Notes: a model not told the origin generated them from the letters alone. 64,000 bases of DNA from Snowella sp. (GCA_035285545.1 JAYKGY010000094.1:1-64000); one strand, 5' to 3'; positions 31,153-48,456 are shown, counted from the first letter of the stretch. Numbers and translations: made by a program.

Positions 31153-31749
31153 TTAATTTTCAATTTCTTGCACAAAAGCATCCATAAATTGATCGACAAC
31201 GCCTGGATGTTTTCCGGTAATTAAGTTACCATCGATGACTAAATCAGCCGTGACATCTCCCTCATAGATCACTTCTGCTCCTGCATTTTCAACATCACAA
31301 ATAATGTTGTGGGCACAGGTGACTTTTCGGTTTTTCAGTAAGTCCGAATCTGCACAGAGTAGCCACAGGCTATGGCAAATCGTACCAATTTTAATATTGG
31401 GATCGGCGATCGCGTTACGGAGAAAAATGACTGCGGGGGCCTGATTTTTTTGACCTTTTTTGACATTGACCTGATAACGGAGACGATCCATTGCATAGGC
31501 ACCAATACAGATAATGCCTTTGTAATCGCTGGGTTGAACGTCCTTGACTTCGGTGGTGACCGTTACGTGATATTCAATTTGATCATTTTCAGGATTAGAG
31601 CCAAATTTGAGGGATTCATTGCCCCAGAGATGGGATAGGTATTCAACTTCATAGCCTTTTTCGGGAAAGTATTCATTAAAGCGGCGATATTCTGTCGCGT
31701 CAAAATGTTCTTCGATTAAAACACCAATTTTGCCTTTACGGGTTGTCAT
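31153..31749 (-). CDS. DJ-1/PfpI family protein
   Basis: Conserved Glu (FDATEY) and ICH nucleophile elbow; VIDGNLITG. Confidence 0.85.
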   Translation of the reverse strand: MTTRKGKIGVLIEEHFDATEYRRFNEYFPEKGYEVEYLSHLWGNESLKFGSNPENDQIEYHVTVTTEVKDVQPSDYKGIICIGAYAMDRLRYQVNVKKGQKNQAPAVIFLRNAIADPNIKIGTICHSLWLLCADSDLLKNRKVTCAHNIICDVENAGAEVIYEGDVTADLVIDGNLITGKHPGVVDQFMDAFVQEIEN

Positions 31750-31947
31750 GATCGGTTCCTTTTCAAAATAAATGTTGTTTCGAGTTCTAAAATCTAATTT
31801 TGCAGAAGCGAACTTTAGATCCCCTGATCATCTTAGCCATAGGTTTAATCCCTCCCTTTATAAAATCAGGAATTATTAATGATTCTATCCCTGGGTAAAG
31901 GAATTGGTTGTCTGGATCAAACAGGCTCTACCGAGGGATTTTTCTGG

Positions 31948-33651
31948 CTAAAAGGCAAAATTAGTCCGCAGTCCGCCAATAACCAGATCTTGATTGTTGG
32001 CATCCTGGTTGGGGGCCGTAATCCACATCACAAAGGGGGTAATGGCAAATCCTCGCGCAATTTGATAACGGTAAAAGGCTTCGATATGCAAGGAAGTATC
32101 ATTCCTAAAGTTCGCGATCGGTAAACTGGTATTCAGACCCGTGAGCATGGGTTCTACCCCCACCACCAAACCGCCTAAATTTCCTTCCCGGAACAAATCA
32201 GGAAAAATGGCTTGTAAAGAATACGTCCAAATCTCAGCATCACCTTTACCTAACAGTCGGGCTTGGATATAGTTCACCCATCCCCCCAAAGAAAATTGAG
32301 GATTAAAGGCATAGTAACCCCCGACTCCATAGGCATTGGAAACAACCGACGAGGCATCATTAAAAAGAATCCCTGGATCATCAAAGCGATTAGCCAGCGA
32401 CGTTCCCACATAACCCGATCCGGGTCGGAAGGTTTGGCCATTATTAAAGGCAAAGTTTCCGGGGGCAAAATAACCGTGTTGATAAAGTAATTGGAGAAAG
32501 ATGCCTGGGTCAGGATTATAGTTCAGTTGAGCGGCGGCAATATAATCTCCGGCAAAGAGGCCCACGCCTTGATTCGGTGCGCCGGTGGGGACATTGGGAA
32601 GCGATCCCGTTGGGGTTAAATAGGTCAGACTAAATAAGGTGTCTTTCGCCAAGTTCGCTGTTACGGAACCGCCTACCCCACCCCCAATGAGATAGATCGG
32701 GGGGGCAACGGCAAAGGAACTGACAGGGCCAAAACCGAGTTGATAGTCAGGAACAAAGTTCGGGAGTAGGGAGGTGGAAAAGTTGTAGCGGTTAACCGGA
32801 ACAATGGTGGCACTAAAACTTTCCCCAATGGGAAATTGATATTGTAAGGTAATGATTTGTAAATTGTTATTTAAATCTCCGGCTGAGGCAGCGTAGGTGG
32901 TTCCCTCTCTAGTGGCTCCCACATTGCGATCGCTATTAAAGGGAGCGACATCTGCTAGGGTCGTATTGGTTGCGGCAAAGCCGGCGAGTAAGGTATCTCG
33001 TCCCGTAAAACTGGTTACATTGGCGAGAAAAAGATTGTATTGATTGGTAACTTGAGGTTTGCCCCGTTCGGTTTCCCCTGAAAAATAGATATCGGTTTGC
33101 ACAATCAGATTGCCAAATATCTTACTTGTTGGCGAAAAGTTATGGTCTTCTAGATAGGAGAGGCGGCTTTCTAGGTTATCAACGCGGGCGGTTAAGGGGG
33201 CTAATTCTTTCTTAAAGTCTTCCTGGAGTCGCTTTAGGAGCGCAAGATCGTCTCTAGCCAGTTGACTCGCGGATTCTAGATTGGTTAAGAGCTTATTTAA
33301 ACAGGCATTCAGCCCGGCGGCAAATTCCCAACGAGAGAGGGCGCGATCGCCGCGGAAGGTTTGATTCGGATAACCACTAATGCAACCATAGCGTTCTGTG
33401 AGCATTTGCAGGGCTTGATAGGCCCAATCATCGGGGGAAACGTCCTTTAATTCTGAAACATTGGTAATTTGAGAGACTAGGCGCGGGGAGGGGGAGGGAG
33501 AAGCCGGTGTCGGGGGAAGGGTCGGAGCAGAAACGAGAGGAGAAGAAACCTCTGCTAGGGATGGATCGCTGGCCATCATGACCGATAGGCAAGATAGAAG
33601 CGATAGGGCTATTCCCTTCGATAAAAAACGAAAGTTCGTGCATTTAAGCAT
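31948..33651 (-). CDS. Cyanobacterial outer-membrane porin (SLH plus OprB-type barrel)
   Basis: VSELKDVSPDDWAYQAL..L.ERYGCISGYP SLH domain; HIEAFYRY; C-terminal RTNFAF. Confidence 0.9.
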   Translation of the reverse strand: MLKCTNFRFLSKGIALSLLSCLSVMMASDPSLAEVSSPLVSAPTLPPTPASPSPSPRLVSQITNVSELKDVSPDDWAYQALQMLTERYGCISGYPNQTFRGDRALSRWEFAAGLNACLNKLLTNLESASQLARDDLALLKRLQEDFKKELAPLTARVDNLESRLSYLEDHNFSPTSKIFGNLIVQTDIYFSGETERGKPQVTNQYNLFLANVTSFTGRDTLLAGFAATNTTLADVAPFNSDRNVGATREGTTYAASAGDLNNNLQIITLQYQFPIGESFSATIVPVNRYNFSTSLLPNFVPDYQLGFGPVSSFAVAPPIYLIGGGVGGSVTANLAKDTLFSLTYLTPTGSLPNVPTGAPNQGVGLFAGDYIAAAQLNYNPDPGIFLQLLYQHGYFAPGNFAFNNGQTFRPGSGYVGTSLANRFDDPGILFNDASSVVSNAYGVGGYYAFNPQFSLGGWVNYIQARLLGKGDAEIWTYSLQAIFPDLFREGNLGGLVVGVEPMLTGLNTSLPIANFRNDTSLHIEAFYRYQIARGFAITPFVMWITAPNQDANNQDLVIGGLRTNFAF

Positions 33652-33722
33652 AAAATTTTTAACTCACACCAAAAATTTTTAAAATCCCAGAAAGCTATCC
33701 GGGGCAACTGACCTAACGGTAT

Positions 33723-34178
33723 CTAACGGCCAAAGATTAAAAAATCCAGAGAAAATCGCCCGGCTCCTTCTAAGACAAATAGAATAGCGATCGCCAAGTA
33801 GACTAAGGCCGACTCATAGGATTTTCCTGGGGCATCGGGTCTTTCCTTCATCAAAGGAACCCCATCACGAAGGTGCAAATAGAGCGCGATCGCCATTGAT
33901 CCCGTTAACGCTAAAGCAGCTAAAGGAGTCAATAAACCGAGAATAATCGCAATACCTCCACCAAAAATGGTGAATGCGCCCAAGGCTTGAAGCGGAGCGG
34001 GAATACCTGACGGTTTGCCCATATCCATCCAATGCAGGGGATTTTTTAACATGGGTCTGGCATAAAACAACAAGACTGTCCCCCAGACCAAGCGGAGACC
34101 CAGCAAAGCCCAAGGTTCTAATCCCTCATGGAACGGCGGAAAAAAAGGTGCTAGGATTGTCAATTTTTGTGTCAACAT
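33723..34178 (-). CDS. DoxX family membrane protein
   Basis: LLGLRLVWG, LGLLTPLAAL, YE, GAGRFSLD. Confidence 0.85.
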   Translation of the reverse strand: MLTQKLTILAPFFPPFHEGLEPWALLGLRLVWGTVLLFYARPMLKNPLHWMDMGKPSGIPAPLQALGAFTIFGGGIAIILGLLTPLAALALTGSMAIALYLHLRDGVPLMKERPDAPGKSYESALVYLAIAILFVLEGAGRFSLDFLIFGR

Positions 34179-34266
34179 GATTATAAACTTCTCAAACTTC
34201 TACTAAAGTAAACCATACCTTATCAATTAACTTTTATAGTAAATCAATATTAATAAATTAATTTCA

Positions 34267-35238
34267 ATGAAAAATAATCACCGCCTTGTGCAAACATCAA
34301 TTTATTTATCCATGTCTACCAATCTTTCGATGGCAATTCTAGGGATTGGTGTAGGGCTTTGGATTGAATCGGATGCTGTCATGTTAGACGGTTTTTTTAA
34401 TACCGTAAATCTTATCATGGCCTGTGCCACGCTTTATATCAGTAGATTATTACAAAAACCCGAAGGAAAACAGTTTAATTTTGGCTATACCGGCTTTGTT
34501 CCCTTACTCAATCTTTGTAAAGGATTATTAGTATTTGGCGTTTCCATTTTTGCGTTTACTGGCTCTCTTGGTGCCCTATTTCATGGTGGGGTTCCTGCTA
34601 AAACGGGGACTGCTGTTATTTATGCGGCGATCGCTGCCACAGTTTGTTTAATTGTGGCCCTGATTCAAAGAAATTTAGCCAACAAAACCCAATCACCGAT
34701 TGTTATTGTTGATGCCCAAAATTGGCTTATTAATGGCATGATTTCCTTGGCCGTGGGTATTGCTTTCGGATTTGCAACTTGGCTAGGAACGACTCCCTTC
34801 AAAGCTTTTGTTCCCTACTCTGATCCAACCATTGTGATCATTTTAGTCCTTATTTCTTTTCCGATTCCTATCTCGGTTATTTTAACCAGTGTCAAACAAT
34901 TAATGCTTGGGGCACCTCGCAAAGACTTACAACAGCGCATTTATAGCATCATTCAAGAAGGAATAAAAGCCTATCCCTGCGAACGCTATGTGTTAAGAAT
35001 GGCTGAAACAGGCTCTGTCATTTATTTACATTTTTATTGGTTATTACCCAGTAACCATCAAGGGATGCCTTTAACCGAATTAGACCGAATTAGACAAGAA
35101 ATTAATCAGCTTCTTCAACAAGAGTTTCCCGAAATGATTATTGATCTGATTTTTACTCAAGATCAGGGTTGGTTTACGATGATGAATGAAGAACGGGGTA
35201 GCCAATCTCTCCAGCCAGAACTATCGATTAATTCCTGA
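34267..35238 (+). CDS. Cation diffusion facilitator family transporter
   Basis: SDAVMLDG, FNFGY, VDAQNW, DP motifs; six TM segments plus soluble C-terminal domain. Confidence 0.8.
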   Translation: MKNNHRLVQTSIYLSMSTNLSMAILGIGVGLWIESDAVMLDGFFNTVNLIMACATLYISRLLQKPEGKQFNFGYTGFVPLLNLCKGLLVFGVSIFAFTGSLGALFHGGVPAKTGTAVIYAAIAATVCLIVALIQRNLANKTQSPIVIVDAQNWLINGMISLAVGIAFGFATWLGTTPFKAFVPYSDPTIVIILVLISFPIPISVILTSVKQLMLGAPRKDLQQRIYSIIQEGIKAYPCERYVLRMAETGSVIYLHFYWLLPSNHQGMPLTELDRIRQEINQLLQQEFPEMIIDLIFTQDQGWFTMMNEERGSQSLQPELSINS

Positions 35239-35688
35239 AAAAATCAAAATAACTTCAAGAAGCTTAGCCGCTTTTTCCAGGGGATTGCTGTCTAATACCC
35301 CAAAGAATACTTTACTAACCTATATTAATCTATCCTTGATCTTATTTATAACTAAATAATGATAAAGTTGAAGGTTCTTGATTTTTCTAAAAATATGGCA
35401 TCTCTTCCCTGGATGAAGTTATTGATCTTGAATATTGTAAAGAAAAATAACAACCTATCTTTTCATAAAGTGTCAATAATTACAAAATGATAAAATAATG
35501 CATATCTTTATCATCTCTCTTTTACAATTATGAATAAATTTAGTTTACAAAAAACTTAAATTTAAATTCGTTTTTATTCCAGCTATCGAATGGATAAAGA
35601 TTAATTTAGTGTGCATACTTATGTCCACTAATCTTTTTGTTTTGAGTCAAAAAGAACAATTAATTATCTATCAAAGATAACTTCAATA

Positions 35689-37236
35689 ATGTTTTCAACC
35701 ATTGACCCATTAACACGCATTAACTACGCTTCAAGGGATCAAAAAGGAAGATTCACGTTTTATGTTCTCCTGTGGAAACGTGAGGGGATTCCTTTGGATC
35801 TGTTTGATGATTATTGGAGAGATGTCCACGGCCCCGTGTGCGCTCGATTGCCCGGACAGTTCCAGTATTGGCAGCACCATGTTGCCCACGATCGCGGCGG
35901 CTTCTGGCCAACCATTTCAGGACTCGACTCTGACGGGGATGATGAGGATAACTTTGATGGCATTGCTCAACTGACCTTTGAAAGTGAGGCGGATCGTAGC
36001 ACCTGGTTTCAGGCGGCGGGGATTCTCATGGACGATGAGCATAACCTGTTTAAAAAAGCCATTGGTTATACGACCAGTCAGGATAATTCTCTGACCTATT
36101 TGGATGGCATTGTAGACGGCTCTCCCAACGGAGAAACGGGCGTTATCACGTTCCATTCCCTGATCAAAAAAGCTGATTCAGTGGATGTGCCTAGCTTTCG
36201 GCGATACCTGAAGGAGCAATTTGCCCCAACGCTGATCAACAGTCCATTTATTTTGAAATTACGATTGCATCTTTTTGATGAGGTCGATAACTCACGGCCC
36301 GATGCAGCCGGCGTAATCCACTCCGAGGTTCCTGCCAAGCAATATCAAGCCGCCTTAGAAATTGCCTTTGCCAATCATCTCAACCGAGAGCAATTTTTTG
36401 CGTCTCCTGAGTATGCGGCTGCGATTAAAGAAGCTCCCCGTTATCTCAAGCAGGTTAAGACTTTCCCTGAGCGAACGGTCTATACCTTTGTTTATGACGG
36501 AAAAATGACCCTGGCGGGCCAGCGGAGTTCTTCAGTCGCCGCCTTAATTACGGATATTGGGGCAGTTAATCAGCTACAAACGGATATTTCTGATTTGATG
36601 CTGACGCGATCGCTGAAGGGCAATTTTGCTGCCGACTCCAATCCTGCAAACCCAACTCAACAGAACACAATGAAAAAACGGACAAATTATTATCAAGGTT
36701 TAGCCGCCGATTACTCCCGCCCTGGCTTAGTAAGTGCCTACGTTGCTCAAAAACTAATCGAGGACGCAGAAAAAATCGTGGCCATGAAGGAGCCAAAATT
36801 ACCTGAAATCAATCAATCTTACACTCTAGCGCAAATCGAACAAGAAAATAAAGATTGGTGGCCCACCCACTGCGAAGCCTTGAGACAGGGACGGGGAGAC
36901 ATTCTGACGGGAGAATATCGAGATGATCTGATTTATCTCTGCCAGGATGGCCCATTTTTTGGACTCCAGGAACAACGGGAACGGGAAAAACACTGGTGGG
37001 CCTTAATTGCCCAACCCAACGTCACCATGTGTTGGCCCATTGTGATGTTCTCTGGGGAGCATACCTATTTTGAGTGGAAATGCGTAGACGATGAAACCAA
37101 CGAAACCCTAGCCAAAGGCAATGTCACCTGGGTCAGACGGGGCCATCGGGGAGGATGCTATCTCAAAACCGAACAACTCACCTTCTATCGGGATGTCTTC
37201 GCGCCGAACGAACTTTTGCAATTAATCACCACTTGA
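35689..37236 (+). CDS. EthD-domain protein fused to a C-terminal NTF2/SnoaL-like domain
   Basis: LLWKREG..LDLFDDYWRDVHGP...FDGIAQL is an EthD/DABB signature; the C-terminal ~190 aa assignment is tentative. Confidence 0.7.
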   Translation: MFSTIDPLTRINYASRDQKGRFTFYVLLWKREGIPLDLFDDYWRDVHGPVCARLPGQFQYWQHHVAHDRGGFWPTISGLDSDGDDEDNFDGIAQLTFESEADRSTWFQAAGILMDDEHNLFKKAIGYTTSQDNSLTYLDGIVDGSPNGETGVITFHSLIKKADSVDVPSFRRYLKEQFAPTLINSPFILKLRLHLFDEVDNSRPDAAGVIHSEVPAKQYQAALEIAFANHLNREQFFASPEYAAAIKEAPRYLKQVKTFPERTVYTFVYDGKMTLAGQRSSSVAALITDIGAVNQLQTDISDLMLTRSLKGNFAADSNPANPTQQNTMKKRTNYYQGLAADYSRPGLVSAYVAQKLIEDAEKIVAMKEPKLPEINQSYTLAQIEQENKDWWPTHCEALRQGRGDILTGEYRDDLIYLCQDGPFFGLQEQREREKHWWALIAQPNVTMCWPIVMFSGEHTYFEWKCVDDETNETLAKGNVTWVRRGHRGGCYLKTEQLTFYRDVFAPNELLQLITT

Positions 37237-37242
37237 CTAGCC

Positions 37243-37602
37243 ATGACTGAGAAAAATTATCAAAATGCAGTTTTGGATGATTACGAATTGCAATCTGCGT
37301 TAAAAAACCTTAACCCTAAATTTGGCGATTTTGTCACACGGGTTGCGGGGGAAGCGTGGGGATTACCACTGATTGATCAAAAAACGAAGGCTTTAATTAC
37401 AATTGCCATTGATGTGGTTAATCAATCCCAAAATGGGCCAGGCTCACCCTTTGGTGCCCATATTGATATGGCCTTAAAACAGGGAGCGACTAAAGCAGAA
37501 ATTGAAGAATTACTAATTTTCCTGTGTCCCTACGCTGGATTTAATAAGGTTGCGGGATGTATGGGTGTTTTCAATGAGTTCTTTCAACAGCGAGAATCCT
37601 AA
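37243..37602 (+). CDS. Carboxymuconolactone decarboxylase (AhpD-like) family protein
   Basis: IDQKTKALITIA, HIDMALKQGATKAEIEE, PYAGF. Confidence 0.85.
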   Translation: MTEKNYQNAVLDDYELQSALKNLNPKFGDFVTRVAGEAWGLPLIDQKTKALITIAIDVVNQSQNGPGSPFGAHIDMALKQGATKAEIEELLIFLCPYAGFNKVAGCMGVFNEFFQQRES

Positions 37603-37604
37603 TA

Positions 37605-40600
37605 ATGATTGAAACGAAAGCCCAAACAAATTATGCAGAACGGGATCAACTCGGACGGGTTGCCTTTTACGTTCTCTTGTGGAAGCGCGAGGGAATTTCC
37701 CTAGAACTGTTCGATAATTATTGGAAGGATGTACATGGGCCTGTTTGCGCCCGTTTACCTGGTCAATACCAATATTGGCAGTTCCACGTTGCTCACAATC
37801 AAGGGGGATTTTGGCCCCAAATTCCAGGACTGGCCGCTTCTTGCGATCCGAAAGATAACTTTGATGGGATTGCTGAATTAACTTTTACCAGTGAAGCGGA
37901 ACGGGCGATCTGGTTTAAAGCGGCGGGAATTTTGATGGATGATGAGCATAATCTTTTTTCCAAGGCGATCGGTTACACTACCAGTCCAGGCAATTCGATT
38001 ACCTATCGAGATGGTATTGCGGATGGCTCTCCCAATGGGGAAGTCCCTGGAATTAAATTTCATGTTCCCATCCAAAAAGCCGAAGGGGTCAGTGTCGATG
38101 CATTTCGTCAATACCTCACCCAAGTCTTTGCTCCAGCGATCCTACAAAGCGAGGCTCTGTTAAAATTCCGTCTTCATCTTTTTGATGATATTGATAATTC
38201 TCGTCCCGATGCGGCGGGGGTTGTTCATGCAGAGGCTCCTGATAAGCAATACCATGCGGCCTGTGAAATTGCCTTTGCAAATCATCTGGAACGGGAGAAA
38301 TTCTTTGCCTCAACGGCCTATGCGGCTGCTATCCGCGATGCGTCTCGTTATATCAGACAGTTGCAAGTCTTTCCTGAACGAACGGCCCATACCTTTGTTT
38401 ACAACGGTCAAATGACCTTGGCGGGGCAACGCAGTGCGAAAGTGGCTGATTTGATCACCCGGATTGGGGCAGCGAATCAACTTAAACAGGAGATTACTTC
38501 GCTTATGGTTAACTATCAAACCCCCGTCAATGGTCAAGCCCCTAGTTCTAATGGCCAGGCGATCGCCGCTAGTAACGGAACCAATGGCAATGGAAACGGA
38601 ACGATCGCGGCTCAACTCAGTACGAGTACAGCCACCAAGTCCAGCCTCGGCAAATACCTCCAAGGGGTGCAACACTTTGGCATTACAGTCAATGACTTAG
38701 ATAAGGCTCTCGAATTTTATATTGAGGTGTTAGGGGGTCGTTTAGCGATCGGTGGTGATGGCTTTATTGGCGATGAGCTTCATAATTTATTATTCCAAAA
38801 AGAAGATCTTGAAGCGGCTCAACAACATATCAATCCCCGCAACATCGGCATTCCCAGTATCCGTGATGGTTCTCAAGATGCCTTGGATGTGCGTTTTATT
38901 TCCTTTGGCAATACCTGTGTGGAGTTAATTCACTTCCGTCAGGCGAAACTCAGTTCCCACGCGCCCAATGTGTTTGATCCCATTCCGTCGGGGATTGGCC
39001 ATGTCAACGCCCCCCATATTTCTTTCTTTGTTAAGGATGATGTGGATCTTAATGAGTTTGCTCAGATGCTGGAGGCGGAATGTCATCGTCGCGGCATGAC
39101 CAATGTGGTGGCCAATCGAACGATTAATGTTAAGTCAAAAGAAGATCTCGCGATCGCGCCCCATATTTACGCCAAAACCGAGTTTCCTGGGGACTTTGAC
39201 GGCTGGGCCTTGTTTTACTGCAAAGGGCCGAACGGAGAACAACTGGAATTTAACCAGGTTCGCCGTAATGCCAAAGAAAACTTCACCCGCGCCCAACGGG
39301 AATATAACGTCGATAACGACAATCACTACTGGGGATTAAACGGTCAAGCCTTACCCGCTAAGCATCCTGGCATGTCTGCCTCCCATACGGTTCCTGTCAA
39401 CGCCACCGAAGAAGTCATTTGGCAAGTGTTGCTCGACAAAATGGAAAACCCCGGCAAGTATATGCCCTATCCGGTGGAATCCCAGGTCGTCTTGGAACGC
39501 TATGTCAACGGAATGCTACGGCAGATCAAAACCCCTGAAATGCTGGTGACGGAACGGGTTACGGTGGATGAACCCAATCACCGCATCATCTACGACATTG
39601 TTAATTACCCGATGTTCCGCCCGACTTTTATCAATCAGGTCTCTACACCGCCGAGTAATGGGACAAGTTCCTTGCCCTTGTTAACCAATAGCTATCACTT
39701 ACAGCCCTTAACCTATCAGGCATTGGAGCAACCCGAAGCCCAGCATTTCATCCAAGCGGCCCAACCCGACTTGATTGAAAAAGCAACGTTGCACCTCAAA
39801 CACCAAATTGAACAAAAATATCCATCCTCTAAACAACCGCAGGAGAATCCCATGACTCAAACCTTAGTTAGTGCAGGCCCCAAATCGGAAATTGTCCGTC
39901 AAATGTTCCTCGCCGGCGAATCCATGAATGTGGAAAATTTTGTGAAGTTCTACACCGAAGATGCCCACTATCAATTTAGTAATTTCCCTGTTGCCTACGG
40001 GCCTCAAGGGATTAAGGATTCTTCCGTTGGCTTCTTACAAACCGTTGCTAAGGTTTATCACCATATCACCAAAATGTGGGAACAGGGGGATACGGTTATT
40101 TGCGAAATGGAAGTGACCTATATTCGCCATGATGGGAAAGTCTTCCGCCTGCCCTGTTGCGATACCATCGTTTTCAAAGGGGATAAGGTTCAAGAGTTAC
40201 GGATTTTCATGGATATTAGTCCTGTCTTTGAAACGCCTTTTGTTGAACCCGAAAAAACTGCACCTCAGTACAATATCAGTCAGCAACTCACCAAAATGTA
40301 CGACGCGCTCCATGCGGAAAATTGGGCGGAGTTTAAAACCTTCTTTACCGATGATGTCCTCTACAAAATTGGTGCGAACGATCCGGTTATTGGCCCCGAC
40401 GCGATCGCGGGATTACTGCAACATATTTATAAAACCCTGAAACTCACCACCCATAATCAACGGGGATTCTGGGAAATTGGCAACACCATCATTTTAGAAA
40501 TGGATGCCAACTACGTGAACAAACAGAATAAAACCTTTGTCCAAGTTCCCTGTACGGATATTTATCGTTTTACCGGCGACAAAATCTCAGAATGGCGTGT

Positions 40601-40637
40601 CTATCCCGATGCCTCTAAAACCGGCGTACAACTCTAG
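37605..40637 (+). CDS. Multidomain protein: EthD module + VOC/glyoxalase + SRPBCC-like + two SnoaL/NTF2 domains
   Basis: EthD module paralogous to the 35689 ORF; VQHFGITVNDLDKALEFY...ELI...HISF...GPNGEQLEF; VNATEEVIWQVLLDKMENP; two 'FYTEDA/FFTDDV...PC.D..F.GDK' repeats. Confidence 0.75.
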   Translation: MIETKAQTNYAERDQLGRVAFYVLLWKREGISLELFDNYWKDVHGPVCARLPGQYQYWQFHVAHNQGGFWPQIPGLAASCDPKDNFDGIAELTFTSEAERAIWFKAAGILMDDEHNLFSKAIGYTTSPGNSITYRDGIADGSPNGEVPGIKFHVPIQKAEGVSVDAFRQYLTQVFAPAILQSEALLKFRLHLFDDIDNSRPDAAGVVHAEAPDKQYHAACEIAFANHLEREKFFASTAYAAAIRDASRYIRQLQVFPERTAHTFVYNGQMTLAGQRSAKVADLITRIGAANQLKQEITSLMVNYQTPVNGQAPSSNGQAIAASNGTNGNGNGTIAAQLSTSTATKSSLGKYLQGVQHFGITVNDLDKALEFYIEVLGGRLAIGGDGFIGDELHNLLFQKEDLEAAQQHINPRNIGIPSIRDGSQDALDVRFISFGNTCVELIHFRQAKLSSHAPNVFDPIPSGIGHVNAPHISFFVKDDVDLNEFAQMLEAECHRRGMTNVVANRTINVKSKEDLAIAPHIYAKTEFPGDFDGWALFYCKGPNGEQLEFNQVRRNAKENFTRAQREYNVDNDNHYWGLNGQALPAKHPGMSASHTVPVNATEEVIWQVLLDKMENPGKYMPYPVESQVVLERYVNGMLRQIKTPEMLVTERVTVDEPNHRIIYDIVNYPMFRPTFINQVSTPPSNGTSSLPLLTNSYHLQPLTYQALEQPEAQHFIQAAQPDLIEKATLHLKHQIEQKYPSSKQPQENPMTQTLVSAGPKSEIVRQMFLAGESMNVENFVKFYTEDAHYQFSNFPVAYGPQGIKDSSVGFLQTVAKVYHHITKMWEQGDTVICEMEVTYIRHDGKVFRLPCCDTIVFKGDKVQELRIFMDISPVFETPFVEPEKTAPQYNISQQLTKMYDALHAENWAEFKTFFTDDVLYKIGANDPVIGPDAIAGLLQHIYKTLKLTTHNQRGFWEIGNTIILEMDANYVNKQNKTFVQVPCTDIYRFTGDKISEWRVYPDASKTGVQL

Positions 40638-40883
40638 TATTACGCGGTTGTTTATCCACTGTTAAGTCATGACCAGGGGATTTTCCATCCCCTCCCAGGG
40701 CTTTTCAGTGGTCATTTCTGTTTTTAATTGCCCAACCTAGATTAAGCAACCGCCCTAACCTTCTCCTCACACTTTATTTCTTGAATTTAAAACGCCATAA
40801 ACCCGCGTCGAATACATTCATTGCCTCGAATCAAATCAATCATTTCAAGGCTTTTTTTAAATCGATATGGAGAATCTTAAACA

Positions 40884-43019
40884 ATGAGTGGAACCCATGA
40901 TCTGTCCCCGCAAGTCCTGCAAGAATACCAAACCCAGCGGGAGGTTTTTAATAGTCTTGCATCTATTGGAAGTGCAAAGTATGTTCATATCACGAGAAAT
41001 CCGAATGATGTCATTTCTGTAGATTTTACTCGTAACCCCTTTATCTCCGCAGAAGCTCAAAAACCCGATCCCATTCTCAATCCGGCTAGTATACAACCTT
41101 TTAATAAACCAACCTTATACGCTGCGGGCTTTGACCGCGATGGCCAGATACTGTTTAATCAGAGAACCGTTTCGACTTTCCAGCCATCCCAAGGGTTATA
41201 TCAAGATATTGTGACCCTAGAGCAAACTAATAACAAATTTGATGTTTTTGAATTTTTAATCCCGCCAGAAGCAACGACCGTTTTCCATAGTCACACCAAT
41301 GGGGTTGAAATCTTCTATGTATTGGGGGGCGAAACGGCTAATGACGATAATCCCGGTATTCCTAACAACGATGATGTCGTCTTTGAACTGAACGCAGATG
41401 TTGATGGCGTTTTCAATGTCGCTAACCCTAATGACCCATTTTCTATTGTTAAAGATGGTGAAATCGAAATTAACGGCGCAAAAGTGACTAAAGGCTCCTT
41501 TGTTGCGGTTCCTGCGGGTAAGATTCACACCTGGGCGAATACAGGAAAAATTCCGGCTCGTGTCATTGCCTTAATCGTACCTGGGGGGATTGCGGAAGGA
41601 TTTAACACGGTGGGAGCCTCAGCAGGGATTTACGATCCCTCTCCTAAAGTTCATCCCATCTTGGCCAACAATGGAACGAGCAATTTAGTCCCTACCAATA
41701 GAACCCCAACAGAAGTCAATGGCTTAGTTCCGGGCGATCCCAACTTTTATGATTTCTTTCAACAGGTAGCAAATGCTCCTGGTGTTTTAGACCAATTATC
41801 CTTTACCCAATTTCCGACCACATTGCCGGGTGCTGGCCCCGTTGTGGTTTATGGAGTAAAAGCAGATGGTAGCGGTGCTTTTCAGCTTAATCCCTCGGAC
41901 GATGCAGGAACGGGGGGCGTAACGAATCCTCAGGGGGGATCCGCCTTAGTTCCCGATAATTCTCCGGGGGCGGAATCCTTTATTGATGCGCCGACCGATC
42001 CCTTTGCCACTTCGACCTTCTTGAATCCGTTTACGGTGTTACGATTTGGGCAAAATGATGGTTCATTGAATCCTTCTCCCATCGAAACGAAGTTATTTGC
42101 GATTTCCCATGAAGAAGGGGAATACAGCTTTGTTAGTGAAAATCACGAATTATTTGGGGTTTTAAGTGGTCAGGTCGTTTTTGAATTCGGAGAAAATGGG
42201 AACGATCAGGTTCATGTCCAGGTGGCTTCTGAGGGAGATTATATTTACATCAAGCCGGGTTACCATTTCCATATTTGGGCATCCGATCAACTGACCTCTA
42301 GTAGCGCGAAGTTAATTCAGTTTTCAGCTAAGGTTGTCAACATTACGGATTATGTAACGGTGTTCCAACAGATTGCTGAAGCTCAGAATTTAGGTAATCT
42401 CATTTATACGCTGGCAAGCACAGGGATGAATGTAACGGTTACGCCGGATGATGAACAACTCAGCCAAACTGATGCGTTATTCCATAATTTAGTCGGTCTC
42501 TATGAGGTCGTTGATACTACGACAGGTGCGATTCTCGATACCTTTGATGTCAACCAAAATGGTTTAGTAGACGATTTATTAAATCCAGGTGACTTTGGTT
42601 ATGCCCGTACCGCGATCGCTAATCGAGTCAGTAACTTTACCCTACAAGCAGGGGCCAATGGAGATCCCACCAAAAACACCAACTCATCGAATTTTGGGGA
42701 CGTTTTACTTGAAGGTCGTCGATTCTATGCGCCCTTTGTCATTGCTAACGGTGGGCAATTGATTCCTACTAATGGCTCGGTGGAAGACGGATTTAATGCC
42801 TTTTTAGCGCAAAATCCCGATAATGTCGGTGCAACTATCGATAATTACATAACCCATGCAGTTTCCTATTTCGCATTTGGGAGTGCGAATCCCGATGGAC
42901 TTGAGCATTTACAAAATCGAGGTAATAATACCTTTGGCTTTGAAGATCTGCCGGGTAACTTAGGGGTCAGTGATTTTGATTTCAATGACGCGGTATTTAA
43001 ATTCAATTTCTTAGCTTAA
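40884..43019 (+). CDS. Bicupin protein with C-terminal DUF4114-like tail
   Basis: HSHTNGVEIFYVLGG...VPAGKIHTW; second cupin HELFGVLSG...IKPGYHF; tail FGFEDLPG..SDFDFNDAVF. Confidence 0.72.
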   Translation: MSGTHDLSPQVLQEYQTQREVFNSLASIGSAKYVHITRNPNDVISVDFTRNPFISAEAQKPDPILNPASIQPFNKPTLYAAGFDRDGQILFNQRTVSTFQPSQGLYQDIVTLEQTNNKFDVFEFLIPPEATTVFHSHTNGVEIFYVLGGETANDDNPGIPNNDDVVFELNADVDGVFNVANPNDPFSIVKDGEIEINGAKVTKGSFVAVPAGKIHTWANTGKIPARVIALIVPGGIAEGFNTVGASAGIYDPSPKVHPILANNGTSNLVPTNRTPTEVNGLVPGDPNFYDFFQQVANAPGVLDQLSFTQFPTTLPGAGPVVVYGVKADGSGAFQLNPSDDAGTGGVTNPQGGSALVPDNSPGAESFIDAPTDPFATSTFLNPFTVLRFGQNDGSLNPSPIETKLFAISHEEGEYSFVSENHELFGVLSGQVVFEFGENGNDQVHVQVASEGDYIYIKPGYHFHIWASDQLTSSSAKLIQFSAKVVNITDYVTVFQQIAEAQNLGNLIYTLASTGMNVTVTPDDEQLSQTDALFHNLVGLYEVVDTTTGAILDTFDVNQNGLVDDLLNPGDFGYARTAIANRVSNFTLQAGANGDPTKNTNSSNFGDVLLEGRRFYAPFVIANGGQLIPTNGSVEDGFNAFLAQNPDNVGATIDNYITHAVSYFAFGSANPDGLEHLQNRGNNTFGFEDLPGNLGVSDFDFNDAVFKFNFLA

Positions 43020-43138
43020 TTGGCTTAAATAACCGATAAAAATCATCCACTACATCCTAAAATCAAGTGCATTTCTAAAAATGTGGATGGACTCATCTCT
43101 AATAAATTTCCATTAACTATTTTCTAAACTCTATTCTT

Positions 43139-43168
43139 GTAGTTCATTTTTTGTGAGCTACTTTTTTT
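43139..43168 (+). terminator. Probable intrinsic terminator
   Basis: GTAGTTCA/TGAGCTAC stem (one G-U pair) followed by T7. Confidence 0.5.
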
Positions 43169-43953: not shown

Positions 43954-46900
43954 ATGACCAATTCCCAGTCTGGCAATACAATTACATTTAAACCAACGAC
44001 CTATAATTTAGTGAATGGGTTGAATCAAGACCTAGTTTATCATCAAAAAGTATTTTTTAATGGTTTTCCGGTTGAATTAAATGGAATTATTACCGTTTAT
44101 GATATTCCCAACGATGGAATTGAAAATGCTGGCCCCCAACAATATCTCAATATTATTATTAATCCCTATCTAATCAATCCTGACCCCAATATCCCGCCTG
44201 TACAAAACACACCGGATGCCCCCTACGGACTAACGGATCTCGTTGGTTCTGTTTACTTGTACGACGTATTTGAAGATGATGGCAATGGGAATTTAGTCTA
44301 TGATTCTTCGCAGGGCAATACGGATCCGAATGCGTTTCCTTTTCTTCAACAAAATTATCCAGAATTAGCACTTGAGCATCCAGGCTATGTTGCGTTACAA
44401 GGAAGTGGCCCAAATAAATTATTGGGTCAAGAAGAAGCGAACATAACCCAAACAACTGATTCCAACGGCGTAATATACATAACCAATATCGGAACTATTA
44501 ATATTACTGGTGGTGAAGGGATATTTCAGGGTGCAACAGGGTCTCTTAGCTATGTGGAAAACGGGATTAGCGGTCTTCCTTACACGGGTACGATTACAAT
44601 CGAAGGTGATATTACGCTGAGTGAGATTGGTAATCTCAAAAATGCCTATATTATTGGACAAGAAAACTTTAATTCTTGGAGCGTTGGGTTCGATGCAGAC
44701 GGATATTTAAAAGTTCTACCCCATCCCGATCAAAAAGTAGCCTATCAAGATCCTTTTGCCCAATGGCAACAAGACAATAAAGATTACAAAAACGGAATTT
44801 TTAAATACCAAGCAGATGATGGGAGTTATTACTCTAGTTGGGGCCCCAAAAAAGAGCTAGAAGTGACGCTCACAATGGACGAACTAGAGCAGATAGCAAT
44901 TGATGGTTTTGGCATTCTTCAACAGGGAGATCACCTAATTAATTGGTTAGAGGAAGTTAAAGCTACACCCTACGATTTTTTAAGAGCTTATAACAATAGT
45001 ATTACGGGCCCTATGCTGATTGCTGAGCCTGGCGATACATTAAAAATTACGCTTGTTAATAATTTAGAAGATGTTAGTAATCTTCATACTCACGGATTGC
45101 ATGTTTCGCCGGTCGGCAATGGGGATAACGTTCTGATTCCGCTTCAGCCTGGTGGAAGTTGGGAGATAGAAATTGCAATTCCGGATGATCATTTTATTGG
45201 CCCGGATTGGTATCATCCTCATTTACATGGTGAAACTAACGAACAAGTCGCATCAGGTTTAGGGGGATTTTTACTGATTAATCCTTCCTATGATTTACCT
45301 GATCTGGACAAGTTTGATCCTGTGAAGAATCCTGCCTTTTTTATGGCGATCAATAGTTTTGGGATTCAGCAGGAGTATCGCTCAGGCAGTCCAGATGATC
45401 CATTAAATCAATCGACCACGGGAGTTGTTGTTCCAGCAGGAACCCCACTGAGCTTTACTAGCAGCACGACATCCCAGGAAAAAATTTATCAGCTTTCCGA
45501 AGCTCCATTTGTTGGGTATAACGCTAAACCACAACTTTATAATCCTCAAGCTCCTCAAGGAAATCCCTCAAGCTCTAATTTTTCGTCTGCCTATGGAGAA
45601 GGTGCATTAGCTGAACCCGTAGAAAATGTTATTCATACCGTTAATGGTCAATATAATCCCACCATTGAGACCACAACGGGAGCATGGAATTTGTTTTCCT
45701 TTGCCAATATGACCGTTAATTCATTCCATGTTATTCAGCTTATCAAAGTCGAAGCAGATGGAACGCTAACGCCTCAAGAGATGGTCTTAACGGCCATTGA
45801 TGGAGATGCGGCGGGAGTGGTAGAAGGGGTAAGACGAGATGTTACGGTCAGTCCTGTTCTTAATCCTGGTTCTCGTGTAACGTTACAAAATTGGTTTGAA
45901 GAGCCAGGAACTTATTATTTTATTTCAAACGCAACGGACGAAATTTTGGGGGATGATGCACCGGACATTACAAAGGATAAGGGTTTTAAGGATGGCCATT
46001 TAATTTGGGGATCCCAGGTTTTAGCAACCGTAGAAGTCACGGGAGATCCTGTTAATACAGGGGCCTTTCCTGAACCCTATGATGTCTTAGTTGAACAAAG
46101 TGATGAAATTAATGCGATGGTCGATGCGGCCTTAGCAGGAGATGTCACACGGGAAAGAACGTTTACTTGGTCTGCTAATATCGGCGGGGCGATCGCGGCG
46201 GGTAGGACTCCAGATGATACTGAAGTAGAAACGTTTGAGGGAACTTACACAATTAACGGCAAATATTGGGCGACGGAAGGAGGAGGAATGCCGCCTTTAA
46301 CGATGCCGATGTTGGGGACTCGTGAAATCTGGAATTTACGAAATACTTCGGGAATCAGTGATCCGACCTTAGCCTCCGATCTACCTCTATTAGAATGGCA
46401 TCCGTTCCATATTCACCAAAATGATTTTGTGGTTCTGGAGATTAATGGTATTCCAGTTGAACAAATTGAAGATAACTATCTTGCCAGGGTTTTAAGTGAT
46501 ACGATCGCGCTTCCGCCGTCCTATGCCCCTGGTTCTGTCACTCCCCAAAATCCCTATGGAACGCCTCAGATGAATGGAACGCCTTCGGAAGTCAAAATTT
46601 TAATGGACTTTAAGGATTATCCAGGCACCTATGTTAATCATTGCCATATTCTGTTCCATGAAGATGCGGGGATGATGGCTGCGGTTCGGGTCATTCTCAA
46701 TACGAATTCAACCTGGTTGGGTCTGGGTCAAGACAATTCCGGTTCAGTTCGGTTATCGCTAGCGAGTGATCTGGATCAAACAGTTAAACTGAATCCCTAC
46801 GGAGATAGCTTTAGTGGTGGTGTTCAAGTCGCGATCGCCGATATTAACTTCAAAACGAATCCCCCAGACAATAACAATGTCAGTGATAACGTTACCGATA

Positions 46901-48456
46901 TTGCCACTGTTCAGAAATTCCTGAATAGTACCAGTGAGCGGTTTACGGTCAAAATTTTTGATGGCAAAGATCCCAACTCGCTCCTATCGGAAATTAATCC
47001 TTTCCAAGACTTCCAAGCTGCCCTCCAACAGGGTGCCGCGATCGCTTCAGGGGACATTGATGGAGATGGCTTTGCCGATATTATTGTCGGGATAGGAGGG
47101 GGCATTGCTCCGCGCATTGAACTCTATAGCGGTCAGACGTATCAACTCATGGCCAAATTCAATCCCTTCCATCATGAAGGATTTACGGGCCTGATTAACC
47201 TCGCGGCAGGAGATGTGAACAGCGATAATTTTGATGATATTTTAGTGGCCCAAGGTGACGGCGGACGCGGACTTGTCGAAATCTACAGCGGCATCGAGTT
47301 TTATAATTTAATTAAATCAGGTGAAATTAAAAACTTAAGCCCGAATGGAGTCGCCCACGAAACCTCACTCCTTACCCAAGAATTCAGACCCTACGGCGAT
47401 AGCTATACCGGAGAAGTCAAAATCACCTCTGGCTATATCTTGTCCCGTCCCGAATTTCCCAATGGCCAACCGATTCAAACCAGCAATGCGAATATTACAA
47501 CCCTAGCAACTGGCGATATTCCGGCTGGCAAAGAAAGTATTCAGGTTTGGACGTATATGGGGGGGGGTCATAGCCACGATCATGGCACTGAAACGACATC
47601 AACAACGACAGCAGAAGTGAAATTTAATATCGGATTTACGCCAGCCCAAAAAGTGGTGGATATTTCCGGTACTTTTGCAGATATTCCTAATGGTTTACGA
47701 GGGGAACCGGTCTTGCTCGCCCAAATGGAAGATGGTAGTCAAGAGTTAATCCATTTAACACCGGATAAAGGAGAATTGGAAACGATCGCCGTTCCTCGTA
47801 ATAATAGCCCAACGACCACCTTTAACCCTGCCCCAGGAAGTAATGATCTAGGGAGTCTCATCTATGATTTACAGGGGGTTTCGGGCAACGCTACGGCAAA
47901 AACAGATGATGCGGCCTTACAACAAACCGATGCTTTCTTTTCCAATCTTGTGGGTCTTTATGAGGTTTTAGATGCTACGGGGTCTATCGCCGATACCTTA
48001 GACTTCAATCCCAATAGCAATGTTTTACGGCCAGGAGAAGCCGGTTACGCCCAAACAGCGATCGCCAATCGAATCAATAATTTTATCCTGCAAGAAGGAG
48101 GCAAGGGTCAAAACACAACCGCCTCAGACTTTGGGGATGTCTTTATTCAAGGGGGTCGTCTTTATTCGCCCTTTGTGATTGCGAATGGGGGAAATCTCAT
48201 CCCGAATGGCGGCACCATTAACGATGGAATGAATGCTTTTCTCCAAAAAAATCCGAATAACACCGCGGCAACCCTGGAAAACTATACGAACGTTGAAGTT
48301 GCTTACTTCACCTTTGGATCAGCGAATCCTGACGGGACTGAACATCTCAAAAACTGGGGAGATAATACCTTTGGCTTTGAAGATCTGCCAGGCAACTTAG
48401 GAATCAGCGATTTTGATTTCAATGATGCGGTATTTAAATTTAGTTTCTCTGCTTAA
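43954..48456 (+). CDS. Large multicopper oxidase (laccase-type) with FG-GAP-like repeats and DUF4114-like tail
   Basis: All four Cu motifs present: HTHGLH, WYHPHLH, HPFHIH, HCHILFHEDAGMM; repeats GDIDGDGFADIIVG and GDVNSDNFDDILV. Confidence 0.88.
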   Translation: MTNSQSGNTITFKPTTYNLVNGLNQDLVYHQKVFFNGFPVELNGIITVYDIPNDGIENAGPQQYLNIIINPYLINPDPNIPPVQNTPDAPYGLTDLVGSVYLYDVFEDDGNGNLVYDSSQGNTDPNAFPFLQQNYPELALEHPGYVALQGSGPNKLLGQEEANITQTTDSNGVIYITNIGTINITGGEGIFQGATGSLSYVENGISGLPYTGTITIEGDITLSEIGNLKNAYIIGQENFNSWSVGFDADGYLKVLPHPDQKVAYQDPFAQWQQDNKDYKNGIFKYQADDGSYYSSWGPKKELEVTLTMDELEQIAIDGFGILQQGDHLINWLEEVKATPYDFLRAYNNSITGPMLIAEPGDTLKITLVNNLEDVSNLHTHGLHVSPVGNGDNVLIPLQPGGSWEIEIAIPDDHFIGPDWYHPHLHGETNEQVASGLGGFLLINPSYDLPDLDKFDPVKNPAFFMAINSFGIQQEYRSGSPDDPLNQSTTGVVVPAGTPLSFTSSTTSQEKIYQLSEAPFVGYNAKPQLYNPQAPQGNPSSSNFSSAYGEGALAEPVENVIHTVNGQYNPTIETTTGAWNLFSFANMTVNSFHVIQLIKVEADGTLTPQEMVLTAIDGDAAGVVEGVRRDVTVSPVLNPGSRVTLQNWFEEPGTYYFISNATDEILGDDAPDITKDKGFKDGHLIWGSQVLATVEVTGDPVNTGAFPEPYDVLVEQSDEINAMVDAALAGDVTRERTFTWSANIGGAIAAGRTPDDTEVETFEGTYTINGKYWATEGGGMPPLTMPMLGTREIWNLRNTSGISDPTLASDLPLLEWHPFHIHQNDFVVLEINGIPVEQIEDNYLARVLSDTIALPPSYAPGSVTPQNPYGTPQMNGTPSEVKILMDFKDYPGTYVNHCHILFHEDAGMMAAVRVILNTNSTWLGLGQDNSGSVRLSLASDLDQTVKLNPYGDSFSGGVQVAIADINFKTNPPDNNNVSDNVTDIATVQKFLNSTSERFTVKIFDGKDPNSLLSEINPFQDFQAALQQGAAIASGDIDGDGFADIIVGIGGGIAPRIELYSGQTYQLMAKFNPFHHEGFTGLINLAAGDVNSDNFDDILVAQGDGGRGLVEIYSGIEFYNLIKSGEIKNLSPNGVAHETSLLTQEFRPYGDSYTGEVKITSGYILSRPEFPNGQPIQTSNANITTLATGDIPAGKESIQVWTYMGGGHSHDHGTETTSTTTAEVKFNIGFTPAQKVVDISGTFADIPNGLRGEPVLLAQMEDGSQELIHLTPDKGELETIAVPRNNSPTTTFNPAPGSNDLGSLIYDLQGVSGNATAKTDDAALQQTDAFFSNLVGLYEVLDATGSIADTLDFNPNSNVLRPGEAGYAQTAIANRINNFILQEGGKGQNTTASDFGDVFIQGGRLYSPFVIANGGNLIPNGGTINDGMNAFLQKNPNNTAATLENYTNVEVAYFTFGSANPDGTEHLKNWGDNTFGFEDLPGNLGISDFDFNDAVFKFSFSA

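Follow-up and report, generated by a model that had tools for sequence, protein, structure and literature searches.

A recurrent, modular gene island of cyanobacteria with lectin-tailed oxidases and a possible role in handling phenolic compounds

We analysed a 64,000-nucleotide stretch of Snowella sp. (JAYKGY010000094.1), hereafter the window, on whose whole length all coordinates are counted. The genes between positions 31153 and 48456 form a cluster whose gene set recurs in all 80 loci fetched from other genomes, which puts the arrangement far beyond chance. Our tentative reading, to which we give a little less than an even chance, is that the region makes up a single functional unit, a modular island that is horizontally mobile and handles phenolic or quinone-type electrophiles with lectin-tailed oxidases at the cell surface. 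Existing annotation calls the proteins of the island no more than 'hypothetical' or 'EthD domain-containing'. The icfG operon region of Synechocystis sp. PCC 6803 has been studied a great deal, but its first genes are uncharacterised; the comparison would tie these genes to a larger family and make that region a tractable model for its function. The comparison also brings out an unusual laccase-like oxidase of 1500 residues, which carries an extra barrel, a lectin-like tail and a region resembling a propeller, and which was found only beside the cluster in a sample of 401 genomes.

Gene content and recurrence of the cluster

Fourteen open reading frames (ORFs) of the window were scanned with Pfam at its curated cut-offs and with NCBIfam. 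The cluster consists of two divergent arms, which begin 88 bp apart:

31153..31749, minus strand: DJ-1/PfpI protein of the YhbO / general stress protein 18 (GSP18) type, 198 residues (PF01965, 65.6 bits)
31948..33651, minus strand: outer-membrane porin with SLH and OprB domains (Pfam OprB and SLH; NCBIfam por_somb, 369.8 bits)
33723..34178, minus strand: DoxX-family membrane protein, 151 residues (Pfam PF07681, 28 bits)
34267..35238, plus strand: CDF-family metal transporter, 323 residues (Pfam Cation_efflux, 102.4 bits)
35689..37236, plus strand: ORF5, 515 residues, with tandem EthD over residues 1-315 and a 189-residue domain at nucleotides 36670-37233 (EthD, 53 bits)
37243..37602, plus strand: carboxymuconolactone decarboxylase (CMD) protein, PcaC-like, without CxxC, 119 residues (Pfam PF02627, 47 bits)
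37605..40637, plus strand: ORF7, 1010 residues, with tandem EthD, VOC at residues 338-576, SRPBCC/AtaL at 593-700 and SnoaL_2 at 760-875 and 890-1005 (Pfam EthD, Glyoxalase/VOC 31.7 bits, AtaL, SnoaL_2 twice)
40884..43019, plus strand: ORF8, 711 residues, metal-cupin with a C-terminal DUF4114 (Cupin_2 48.8 bits, DUF4114 38.4 bits)
43139..43161, plus strand: weak terminator-like hairpin and T-run 3' of ORF8 (pattern scan)
43954..48456, plus strand: ORF9, 1500 residues, giant laccase-like multicopper oxidase (MCO), with an eight-stranded beta-barrel at nucleotides 44134-44703, the oxidase at about 44986-46692, an FG-GAP region at about 46804-47853 and DUF4114 at 48235-48447 (Cu-oxidase_3 56.1 bits, Cu-oxidase_2 54 bits, DUF4114 38.9 bits)

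DUF4114 is Pfam PF13448, with a cut-off of 27 bits. An earlier, sequence-only reading of this DNA had described the divergent arms and most of the domains; all ten of its ORFs and nearly all of its domain calls are borne out by the ORF listing and by Pfam scores over the cut-offs. Two needed correction. ORF8 had been called a bicupin; it scores over the cut-off for both Cupin_2 and Cupin_1, and Pfam finds one cupin domain, not two. ORF5 had been called an EthD fusion, and EthD is there, as a tandem followed by the 189-residue C-terminal domain, which has no Pfam hit. ORF5 and ORF7 are paralogous over their first 310 residues (66-68% identity), and the CMD stop codon lies 3 nt upstream of the ORF7 start. 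EthD domains occur nowhere else in the host genome (4.16 Mb, 151 contigs), where the cluster genes are single-copy. Pfam found no polyketide synthase (PKS) or nonribosomal peptide synthetase (NRPS) domain in the fourteen ORFs, and no Rfam family reached its gathering score between window positions 29000 and 50000.

Intergenic gaps of 450, 246 and 934 bp lie within the cluster. The hairpin at 43139-43161 is a hint that ORF9 is transcribed separately; over the region, promoter-like sites (36, against 39.3 in shuffles) and terminator-like sites (22, against 20.5) show no excess. None of the seven intergenic regions holds an NtcA-type GTA-N8-TAC site. Among public sequencing runs, matches to this DNA came from DNA runs of one lagoon-metagenome study, one of which may be its source, and from no RNA run.

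To follow the cluster across genomes we used the 189-residue domain as the anchor. It has relatives in 244 of 185,579 species genomes, and we kept the best 80 loci, of which 57 have full 20-kb flanks; presence was scored by tblastn (E<=1e-6, at least 40% of the query covered). The named hosts are all cyanobacteria, except for a few bins labelled 'uncultured bacterium' and a 4-kb contig that had been assigned to Chitinophagaceae. The counts are, for all loci and for those with full flanks:

CMD: 72 of 80; 53 of 57
Tandem EthD: 66 of 80; 50 of 57
PfpI: 62 of 80; 49 of 57
SnoaL: 61 of 80; 47 of 57
VOC: 54 of 80; 42 of 57
Epimerase-like 606-residue protein: 52 of 80; 42 of 57
SRPBCC: 35 of 80; 30 of 57
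Porin: 25 of 80; 21 of 57
FG-GAP: 11 of 80; 11 of 57
DUF4114: 11 of 80; 10 of 57
MCO: 10 of 80; 10 of 57
CDF: 6 of 80; 5 of 57
DoxX: 3 of 80; 2 of 57
ORF8 type: 2 of 80; 2 of 57
Flanking dienelactone hydrolase gene: 0 of 80; 0 of 57
Flanking HAS-barrel gene: 0 of 80; 0 of 57

The order is shared as well. It usually starts with an optional MCO and an optional porin, followed by CMD, EthD2 joined to the 189-residue domain, and CMD joined to EthD2, VOC, often SRPBCC, and two SnoaL domains; more SnoaL genes come next, then PfpI, the epimerase-like gene, STAS, isoamylase and a second STAS. Most loci from Nostocales encode CMD twice, once as an in-frame N-terminal fusion with the ORF7 homologue and once as a separate gene ahead of ORF5; the only CMD of the window is unfused. 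The nearest relative (L017, 94% identical at the anchor) has the layout of the window plus an epimerase-STAS-GlgX block after PfpI. Eleven loci (L083, L086, L087 and L089-L096) have a minimal form made of the 189-residue protein, CMD and PfpI only. In ten of them these genes are followed by epimerase-like, STAS and GlgX genes, plus a kinase and a phosphatase where the locus extends, and L089 stops at PfpI. In a separate set of five relatives, one of whose loci is also among the 80 (the sequences are identical, so that the sets overlap), PfpI, the 189-residue domain, CMD (four of the five), tandem EthD and several SnoaL genes are shared with the window. The co-occurrence over 80 loci, with a recurrent core and a shared order, shows the multi-gene unit without PKS or NRPS that was proposed earlier to be genuine and conserved. 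The edges first drawn also fit, since the flanking dienelactone hydrolase and HAS-barrel genes accompany none of the 80 loci. The former (27509-28384, 2.8 kb off the cluster) would suit aromatic catabolism; given its absence from the related loci, it is probably unrelated to the cluster.

The core module and its probable Synechocystis counterpart

The heart of the island would be a stress module made of an Slr1852-type SnoaL-like domain, a PcaC-like CMD and a PfpI of the YhbO/GSP18 type. The window holds all three, with PfpI on the opposite arm; in related loci the trio is adjacent.

The 189-residue domain has 919 homologues in a set of 5.8 billion proteins. Among the 120 matches listed, identities range from 77 to 93%, and all those with an organism name are cyanobacterial and annotated as hypothetical. 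Among 1.84 billion representatives clustered at 50% identity there are 81 hits, 8 of them below 1e-30. A language-model look-alike search of the ESM Atlas assigned it as a 'putative SnoaL-like protein' at 0.98, and a profile search of the PDB gave no hit at E<=1. An AlphaFold2 model of the domain was discarded (pLDDT 42.5, built from 6 near-identical sequences). Four of the five relatives encode the domain as a stand-alone gene, with 71-82% identity.

PfpI is present in 62 of the 80 loci at a median identity of 80%, and at 83-85% in the five relatives. Its nearest solved structures are SAV1875 and YhbO, and its nucleophile elbow, Cys125-His126, is invariant in 58 sequences. Since it scores 75.5 for the TIGR01382 subfamily, below the cut-off of 139, we regard it as a divergent member of the YhbO/PfpI subfamily. 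The PDB matches of CMD are 4-carboxymuconolactone decarboxylases and the gene is present in four of the five relatives, yet it reaches only 35.2 bits for the PcaC equivalog TIGR02425 (cut-off 155.7) and the other pca genes are absent.

In gene order and published annotation the minimal form corresponds to the front of slr1852-slr1862 of Synechocystis sp. PCC 6803: a 189-residue SnoaL-like protein, CMD, PfpI, epimerase-like, STAS, isoamylase, STAS, kinase and PP2C. Gene order and printed annotation, rather than sequence, suggest that the core trio corresponds to slr1852-slr1854. Passages of published studies describe slr1853 as a carboxymuconolactone decarboxylase and slr1854 as an unknown protein, both of which rise in ethanol (PMC3564720), and slr1854 as 'General stress protein 18', which rises in butanol (PMC3726282); these alcohol responses of slr1853, the CMD, and slr1854 are our link between the core and stress. 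Elsewhere, slr1852-1862 is treated as one salt-repressed operon, with Slr1855 as an N-acetylglucosamine 2-epimerase, Slr1856 as an anti-sigma antagonist, GlgX1 and IcfG (PMC8670252). A passage on slr1852 gives an unknown protein with intragenic NtcA binding (PMC5714215), another reports the Slr1852 protein as lowered in a c-di-AMP mutant (bioRxiv 10.1101/2023.11.14.567006), and a third presents the icfG cluster slr1856-1861 as a partner-switching hub in which Slr1861 is an anti-SigC factor (PMC12329169).

Relative to slr1852-slr1862, the window adds tandem EthD, VOC, SRPBCC, SnoaL, the porin, CDF, DoxX, the cupin and the giant MCO. It differs also in lacking the slr1855-type epimerase-STAS-GlgX block beside PfpI. 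This block is adjacent in 42 of the 57 related loci with full flanks; in the Snowella genome it lies on another contig (C119, 5267-10071), and downstream of PfpI the window has 1.2 kb (29925-31152) with a single 89-residue ORF (30604-30873) without Pfam hit. Because the block stands after PfpI in L017 and on C119 here, the ancestral operon has been cut by a rearrangement downstream of PfpI. The sequence-only reading had called the pathway undescribed. For the core this needs qualifying, as its order and annotation match those of the known, yet uncharacterised, slr1852-slr1854; for the expanded cluster and the giant oxidase, literature searches, which did not extend to paper supplements, found no published description.

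In the window the heart would be enlarged by two multi-domain proteins made up of cofactor-free barrels for small molecules, namely tandem EthD, SRPBCC, SnoaL and a VOC domain whose metal site is intact. The VOC residues H20, E103, H134, E208 and E211 are invariant in 53 sequences. Together with the invariant Cys-His pair of PfpI and the invariant copper motifs of the MCO described below, this H/E/H/E set makes the enzymes look active, as far as residues can tell. SnoaL, SnoaL_2 and AtaL score over their cut-offs, and Polyketide_cyc2 (23.4 bits) stays below its own of 27.4. The tandem EthD module has no PDB hit; the VOC domain and ORF8 have marginal ones only (E 0.008-0.08). In a tree of tandem EthD modules (window 35689-36633 and 37605-38550, and those of L017-L077), ORF5-type and ORF7-type copies often group by lineage and not by position, as those of Stigonema, Rivularia, Aphanizomenon and Cronbergia do. 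This pattern suggests repeated gene conversion or duplication between the two types of copy.

Distribution, surface oxidases and envelope proteins

The phylum sample holds 401 genomes, including that of the window (G000). ORF5 matches occur in 26. As read from the match table, 22 of these have the 189-residue domain, 11 with tandem EthD (expanded clusters) and 11 without (minimal ones); of the remaining matches two are distant and EthD2-like only, and two, at E ~1e-4, are apparently spurious. The island is thus carried by about 5%, roughly one in twenty, of the sampled cyanobacterial genomes. Its distribution is patchy at closer range too. ORF7 homologues are found in 7 of 41 related genomes, the Snowella one included, and one of the seven has only a weak SRPBCC match. 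Within the genus the cluster is present in G000, G002 and G003, and the queries used did not find it in G001 (93% complete), G004 (84%) and G005 (99%). G002 and G003 carry a split-gene variant, in which the ORF7 domains are separate genes, together with a TTHB210-like gene and cupin-DUF4114 proteins.

Several observations argue for horizontal movement of whole variants. The EthD module of the window is 64-65% identical to those of G002 and G003 and 72-74% identical to those of genomes of other families, while a flanking permease is 90-96% identical within the genus. In a midpoint-rooted FastTree phylogeny of 73 EthD modules, whose support values were not inspected, the window groups with L017-L019 and one family-level relative, beside Nostocales and far from G002 and G003. 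Judging by the source names, three strains carry homologues on plasmids, and one homologue belongs to a bin of Bryobacteraceae. No empty insertion site could be shown, the flanking kinase and LivH-type genes being on different contigs in all five same-genus genomes.

The giant oxidase is physically linked to the cluster wherever it occurs in this sample. Full-length orthologues exist in 5 of the 401 genomes (G000, G118, G139, G300 and G351), which belong to four families. All five lie 1.7-7.5 kb from an ORF5 homologue on the same contig, on either side of the cluster. The other 29 hits to the MCO segment are ordinary oxidases of about 500 residues in which one cupredoxin domain was matched. 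The orthologue is therefore found in 5 of the 11 genomes with an expanded cluster against 0 of the 390 others, although kin are not independent. The sequence-only reading was thus right to include the oxidase.

Judged by its motifs and matches, ORF9 is a laccase-like three-domain multicopper oxidase. Its best PDB matches, the Thermus thermophilus laccase and CueO, cover the first cupredoxin domain at E 2e-21 to 1e-14; a further stretch aligns to the C-terminal domain. The copper motifs HxH, HxH, HxxHxH and HCHxxxHxxxxM are all present, and H128/H130, H171/H173, H566/H569/H571 and H646/C647/H648/H652 (numbered in the aligned segment) are invariant in 8 orthologues. It scores 88 for the CueO equivalog (cut-off 525) and is also far below the laccase and PhsA equivalogs.

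ORF9 and ORF8 both end in DUF4114, and we infer that they work at the surface of the cell. A passage in PMC9109919 describes DUF4114 as a Ca-binding, lectin-like, sugar-binding domain and a proposed exopolysaccharide binder. Four proteins of the Snowella genome share a C-terminal module of about 190 residues with this domain, at 64-72% identity. Besides ORF8 and ORF9, G000 has two such proteins, of 1466 residues (C56:43935-48335, minus strand) and 592 residues (C104:15463-17241, plus strand), which by eye carry Gly/Asp-rich RTX-like repeats. The module looks like a surface-anchoring or export tag common in this organism. At the C-terminus, ORF9 and its orthologues have DUF4114, and the CHRD-cupin-RTX proteins of related loci have RTX-type sequence; neither group begins with a signal peptide. 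In ORF8, H135, H137, E142 and H215 are conserved in 3 sequences. Elsewhere its niche is filled by other secreted cupins, of CHRD-cupin-RTX (14 loci) and cupin-RTX (6 loci) types. The lectin-like nature of DUF4114, the barrel homologues with a signal peptide and a PEP-CTERM anchor and the RTX-like repeats together suggest that the oxidases are at the surface.

Residues 61-250 of ORF9, the barrel, match no Pfam family even at E up to 10, and a word-based protein search found 4 proteins. The barrel occurs as a stand-alone protein with signal peptide and PEP-CTERM anchor, and also within 931-residue cupin proteins and other MCOs of the cluster. An AlphaFold2 model shows eight antiparallel strands (pLDDT 76, core >90), for which Foldseek returned no match at E<=0.001. 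VIA-align placed it nearest to outer-membrane PagL and NspA (Z 7.5-7.7), followed by a DUF3224 protein (6.8), allene oxide cyclase (AOC) 1z8k (5.7), three dirigents (5.3-5.5) and several Diels-Alderases at similar values; all Z values are below 8, the safe level for a shared fold, and may reflect a common arrangement only. AOC_like appears below threshold in 4 of 12 homologues of the barrel (20.2-24.5 bits against 25.9, over profile positions 69-114 only), and Pfam Dirigent does not match. An AOC- or dirigent-like nature of the modelled barrel is thus a lead only, with about an even chance of being right. Dirigent proteins are stated, in a passage of PMC7450108, to be absent from cyanobacteria.

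The envelope set would comprise, besides the DUF4114-tailed metal cupin and the giant MCO, a dedicated porin, a rare CDF and DoxX. The porin had been placed in the cluster by the first reading, rightly so: its orthogroup is found in 25 of the 80 loci at a median identity of 54.8%, against 31-38% (best 37.7%) to six paralogues elsewhere in its own genome, and its presence in 21 of the 57 loci with full flanks compares with a chance estimate of about 3% (7 porin genes per 4.16 Mb). Membership of the CDF, also claimed at first with a putative role in supplying cofactors, is a weaker case. It is a rare subtype, below the cut-off of every NCBIfam equivalog (the most similar models are FieF, MamB and MntE), with 4 matches at E<=1e-30 among the 401 genomes: G000, G007 (45%) and G124 and G353 (28-29%). 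The closest holder, G007, has no ORF5 or ORF7 match; the gene adjoins the cluster in 6 of the 80 loci, from three lineages. DoxX is beside the cluster in 3 of the 80 loci and is 83% identical in G003.

Possible functions and known systems

If the region handles phenolic or quinone-type electrophiles, the division of labour might be as follows. Outside the cell, oxidases bound to polysaccharide would attack phenolics, oxidising or cleaving them; small products would pass through the porin, and the cytoplasmic barrels and PfpI would isomerise, cleave or neutralise redox-active aromatics (phenols, hydroquinones, quinones). The fold types and the accessory genes make such substrates, which had been proposed from the start, plausible. 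Among the 80 loci, recurrent accessories include ABM monooxygenases (13 and 8 loci), NADPH-FMN reductase (8), nitroreductase (6) and old yellow enzyme (OYE; 4), as well as short-chain dehydrogenase/reductase (SDR; 19), MFS (5 and 4), LysR (4) and two-component genes; some Nostoc loci also have GH77, GH63-like and aquaporin genes. The first proposal left open whether such compounds are made or detoxified. To judge by these folds and accessories, among which are also the secreted cupins, detoxification or turnover would fit better. The families found in at least 4 of the 80 loci include no PKS, NRPS, terpene synthase or other scaffold builder. For the suggested sheath pigment we found no direct support, but the DUF4114 tails do point to surface enzymes bound to polysaccharide. 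Were the island a defence against phenolic or quinone allelochemicals, it would be relevant to the ways in which cyanobacteria deal with substances of plant and humic origin in lagoons and blooms.

Several observations weigh against this reading. The core has carbohydrate and regulatory genes as its steady neighbours in most genomes (epimerase-like in 42 of 57, GlgX, STAS, GH77 and GH63-like), which points to sugar-derived, not aromatic, substrates. Pfam found no reductase, MarR-type quinone sensor or ring-hydroxylating oxygenase in the window ORFs. Neither ORF8 nor ORF9 has a recognisable N-terminal signal peptide, so that their export is assumed. The H/E/H/E residues of the VOC domain, moreover, form what we take to be a glyoxalase-I-type site and not the two-His-one-Glu site of extradiol dioxygenases.

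One alternative, the making that the first proposal allowed for, is that the island is biosynthetic: an endogenous aromatic compound, for instance a quinone, a pigment precursor or a derivative of tyrosine, would be modified and then coupled or polymerised outside the cell by the laccase, the barrel and the cupin, giving a pigment or polymer of the surface. SnoaL, dimeric alpha-beta-barrel (EthD-type), SRPBCC and cupin folds are classic for cyclases and tailoring enzymes of aromatic polyketides, the barrel adds its AOC- or dirigent-like lead, and the lectin-like tails would put the laccase in the polysaccharide layer. The 77-93% identity of the core domain, among the matches listed and across several cyanobacterial orders, suggests one specific substrate. 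If the island is indeed biosynthetic, aromatic compounds of the surface would be made here by a new route. Yet, the families shared by 4 or more of the 80 loci include neither a scaffold-forming nor an activating enzyme, the minimal form consists of three small proteins before glycogen and regulatory genes, and with the MCO in 10 of 57 loci, extracellular coupling would be optional. We consider this alternative unlikely.

The carbohydrate neighbours lead to another one, namely that the core and its expansions detoxify dicarbonyls or further electrophiles derived from sugars during glycogen breakdown and that the oxidase genes are a later add-on. PfpI is nearest to YhbO and SAV1875, and a passage in PMC5270733 presents YhbO and its Bacillus counterpart YfkM/GSP18 as glyoxalases or deglycases. 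The invariant H/E/H/E of the VOC domain fits such a role, as do the epimerase-like (42 of 57), GlgX and STAS neighbours and the DUF4432 mutarotase-like, SDR and lactonase-like genes of some loci. Two papers treat slr1852-1862 as a unit of carbon metabolism (PMC8670252, PMC12329169). Apart from this, in three Nostoc loci (L044, L059 and L060) the gene for EthD2 and the 189-residue domain lies amid genes for MFS, a GH77 4-alpha-glucanotransferase, FMN reductase, aquaporin, SDR and a GH63-like (mannosylglycerate-hydrolase-like) protein, a variant through which the core may be connected with the metabolism of compatible solutes or glucans. But control of sugar damage leaves unexplained the many folds with hydrophobic pockets (two to five SnoaL, four EthD and SRPBCC), the secreted cupins, the laccase and the porin, and the location of the epimerase-STAS-GlgX block on C119 shows that the two parts are separable. 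As an account of the whole island it is improbable.

Much less probable is a role in metal oxidation and traffic, with the MCO as a surface ferroxidase, cuprous oxidase or Mn oxidase, an iron uptake porin, the CDF, and the cytoplasmic genes as passengers. The porin does score 369.8 bits for por_somb, 'iron uptake porin', and the models nearest to the CDF (FieF, MamB, MntE) and to the MCO (CueO) point the same way, all below their cut-offs. Six other porin paralogues, at 31-38% identity, lie elsewhere in the genome, and we tentatively take por_somb for a broad porin-type model; only 6 of the 80 loci have the CDF next to the cluster and only 10 the MCO; and the MCO is never away from the EthD-type cluster in 401 genomes, which argues that the cytoplasmic genes are its partners. 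Finally, that unrelated small operons merely happen to lie side by side is most improbable and largely refuted for the core, porin and MCO, which recur jointly in several families in different orders and orientations, even though the units are probably transcribed separately, given the gaps and the hairpin, and DoxX (3 of 80) and ORF8 (2 of 80) are rare beside the cluster.

Returning to phenolic and quinone handling, one comparison is with the quinone-resistance regulons of Bacillus and Staphylococcus. According to PMC6798810, the MhqR and YodB/CatR sets of Bacillus subtilis and Staphylococcus aureus confer quinone resistance with VOC dioxygenases or glyoxalases, nitroreductases and FMN-dependent quinone or azo reductases, and the Bacillus quinone-detoxification regulons hold azoreductases, nitroreductases and ring-cleavage dioxygenases. 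The window has VOC (31.7 bits) and DoxX (28 bits), a likeness at the level of families only. MhqP and CatD are DoxX proteins as well. The accessory genes of related loci add to the resemblance, with nitroreductase (6 of 80), FMN reductase (8) and OYE (4), and no MarR family is among the recurrent ones. Unlike these regulons, the island has EthD, SnoaL, SRPBCC, CMD, porin and MCO, which are without counterpart there.

The tailoring enzymes of type II polyketide pathways offer a second comparison. SnoaL, alpha-beta barrels of the TcmI and ActVA-Orf6 type, SRPBCC of the TcmN type and cupins are small cofactor-free folds. The same small folds are clustered here, with SnoaL, SnoaL_2 and AtaL over their cut-offs. 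In contrast with those pathways, ketosynthase, chain-length factor and acyl carrier protein are absent from the fourteen window ORFs and from the recurrent families of related loci, and the domains of the window are fused into proteins of 515 and 1010 residues.

The oxidase itself resembles the Thermus laccase and CueO in its copper motifs, and differs from them in being three times as long, in its extra N-terminal barrel, FG-GAP region and DUF4114, and in having no signal peptide. A bolder idea, which we regard as a long shot, is that the island is a bacterial counterpart of the laccase-dirigent pair of plants, in which a laccase fused to an AOC- or dirigent-like barrel, its lectin tether to exopolysaccharide, the secreted cupins, the porin and a cytoplasmic battery of cofactor-free cyclases and isomerases would build or remodel a defined aromatic compound of the envelope (a coupled phenolic, a pigment or a polymer, for instance) without PKS, NRPS or a known scaffold enzyme. 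As in plants, where laccases act together with dirigents in the coupling of phenoxy radicals, a laccase-type oxidase is here paired with an eight-stranded barrel; in the Snowella protein the two are fused.

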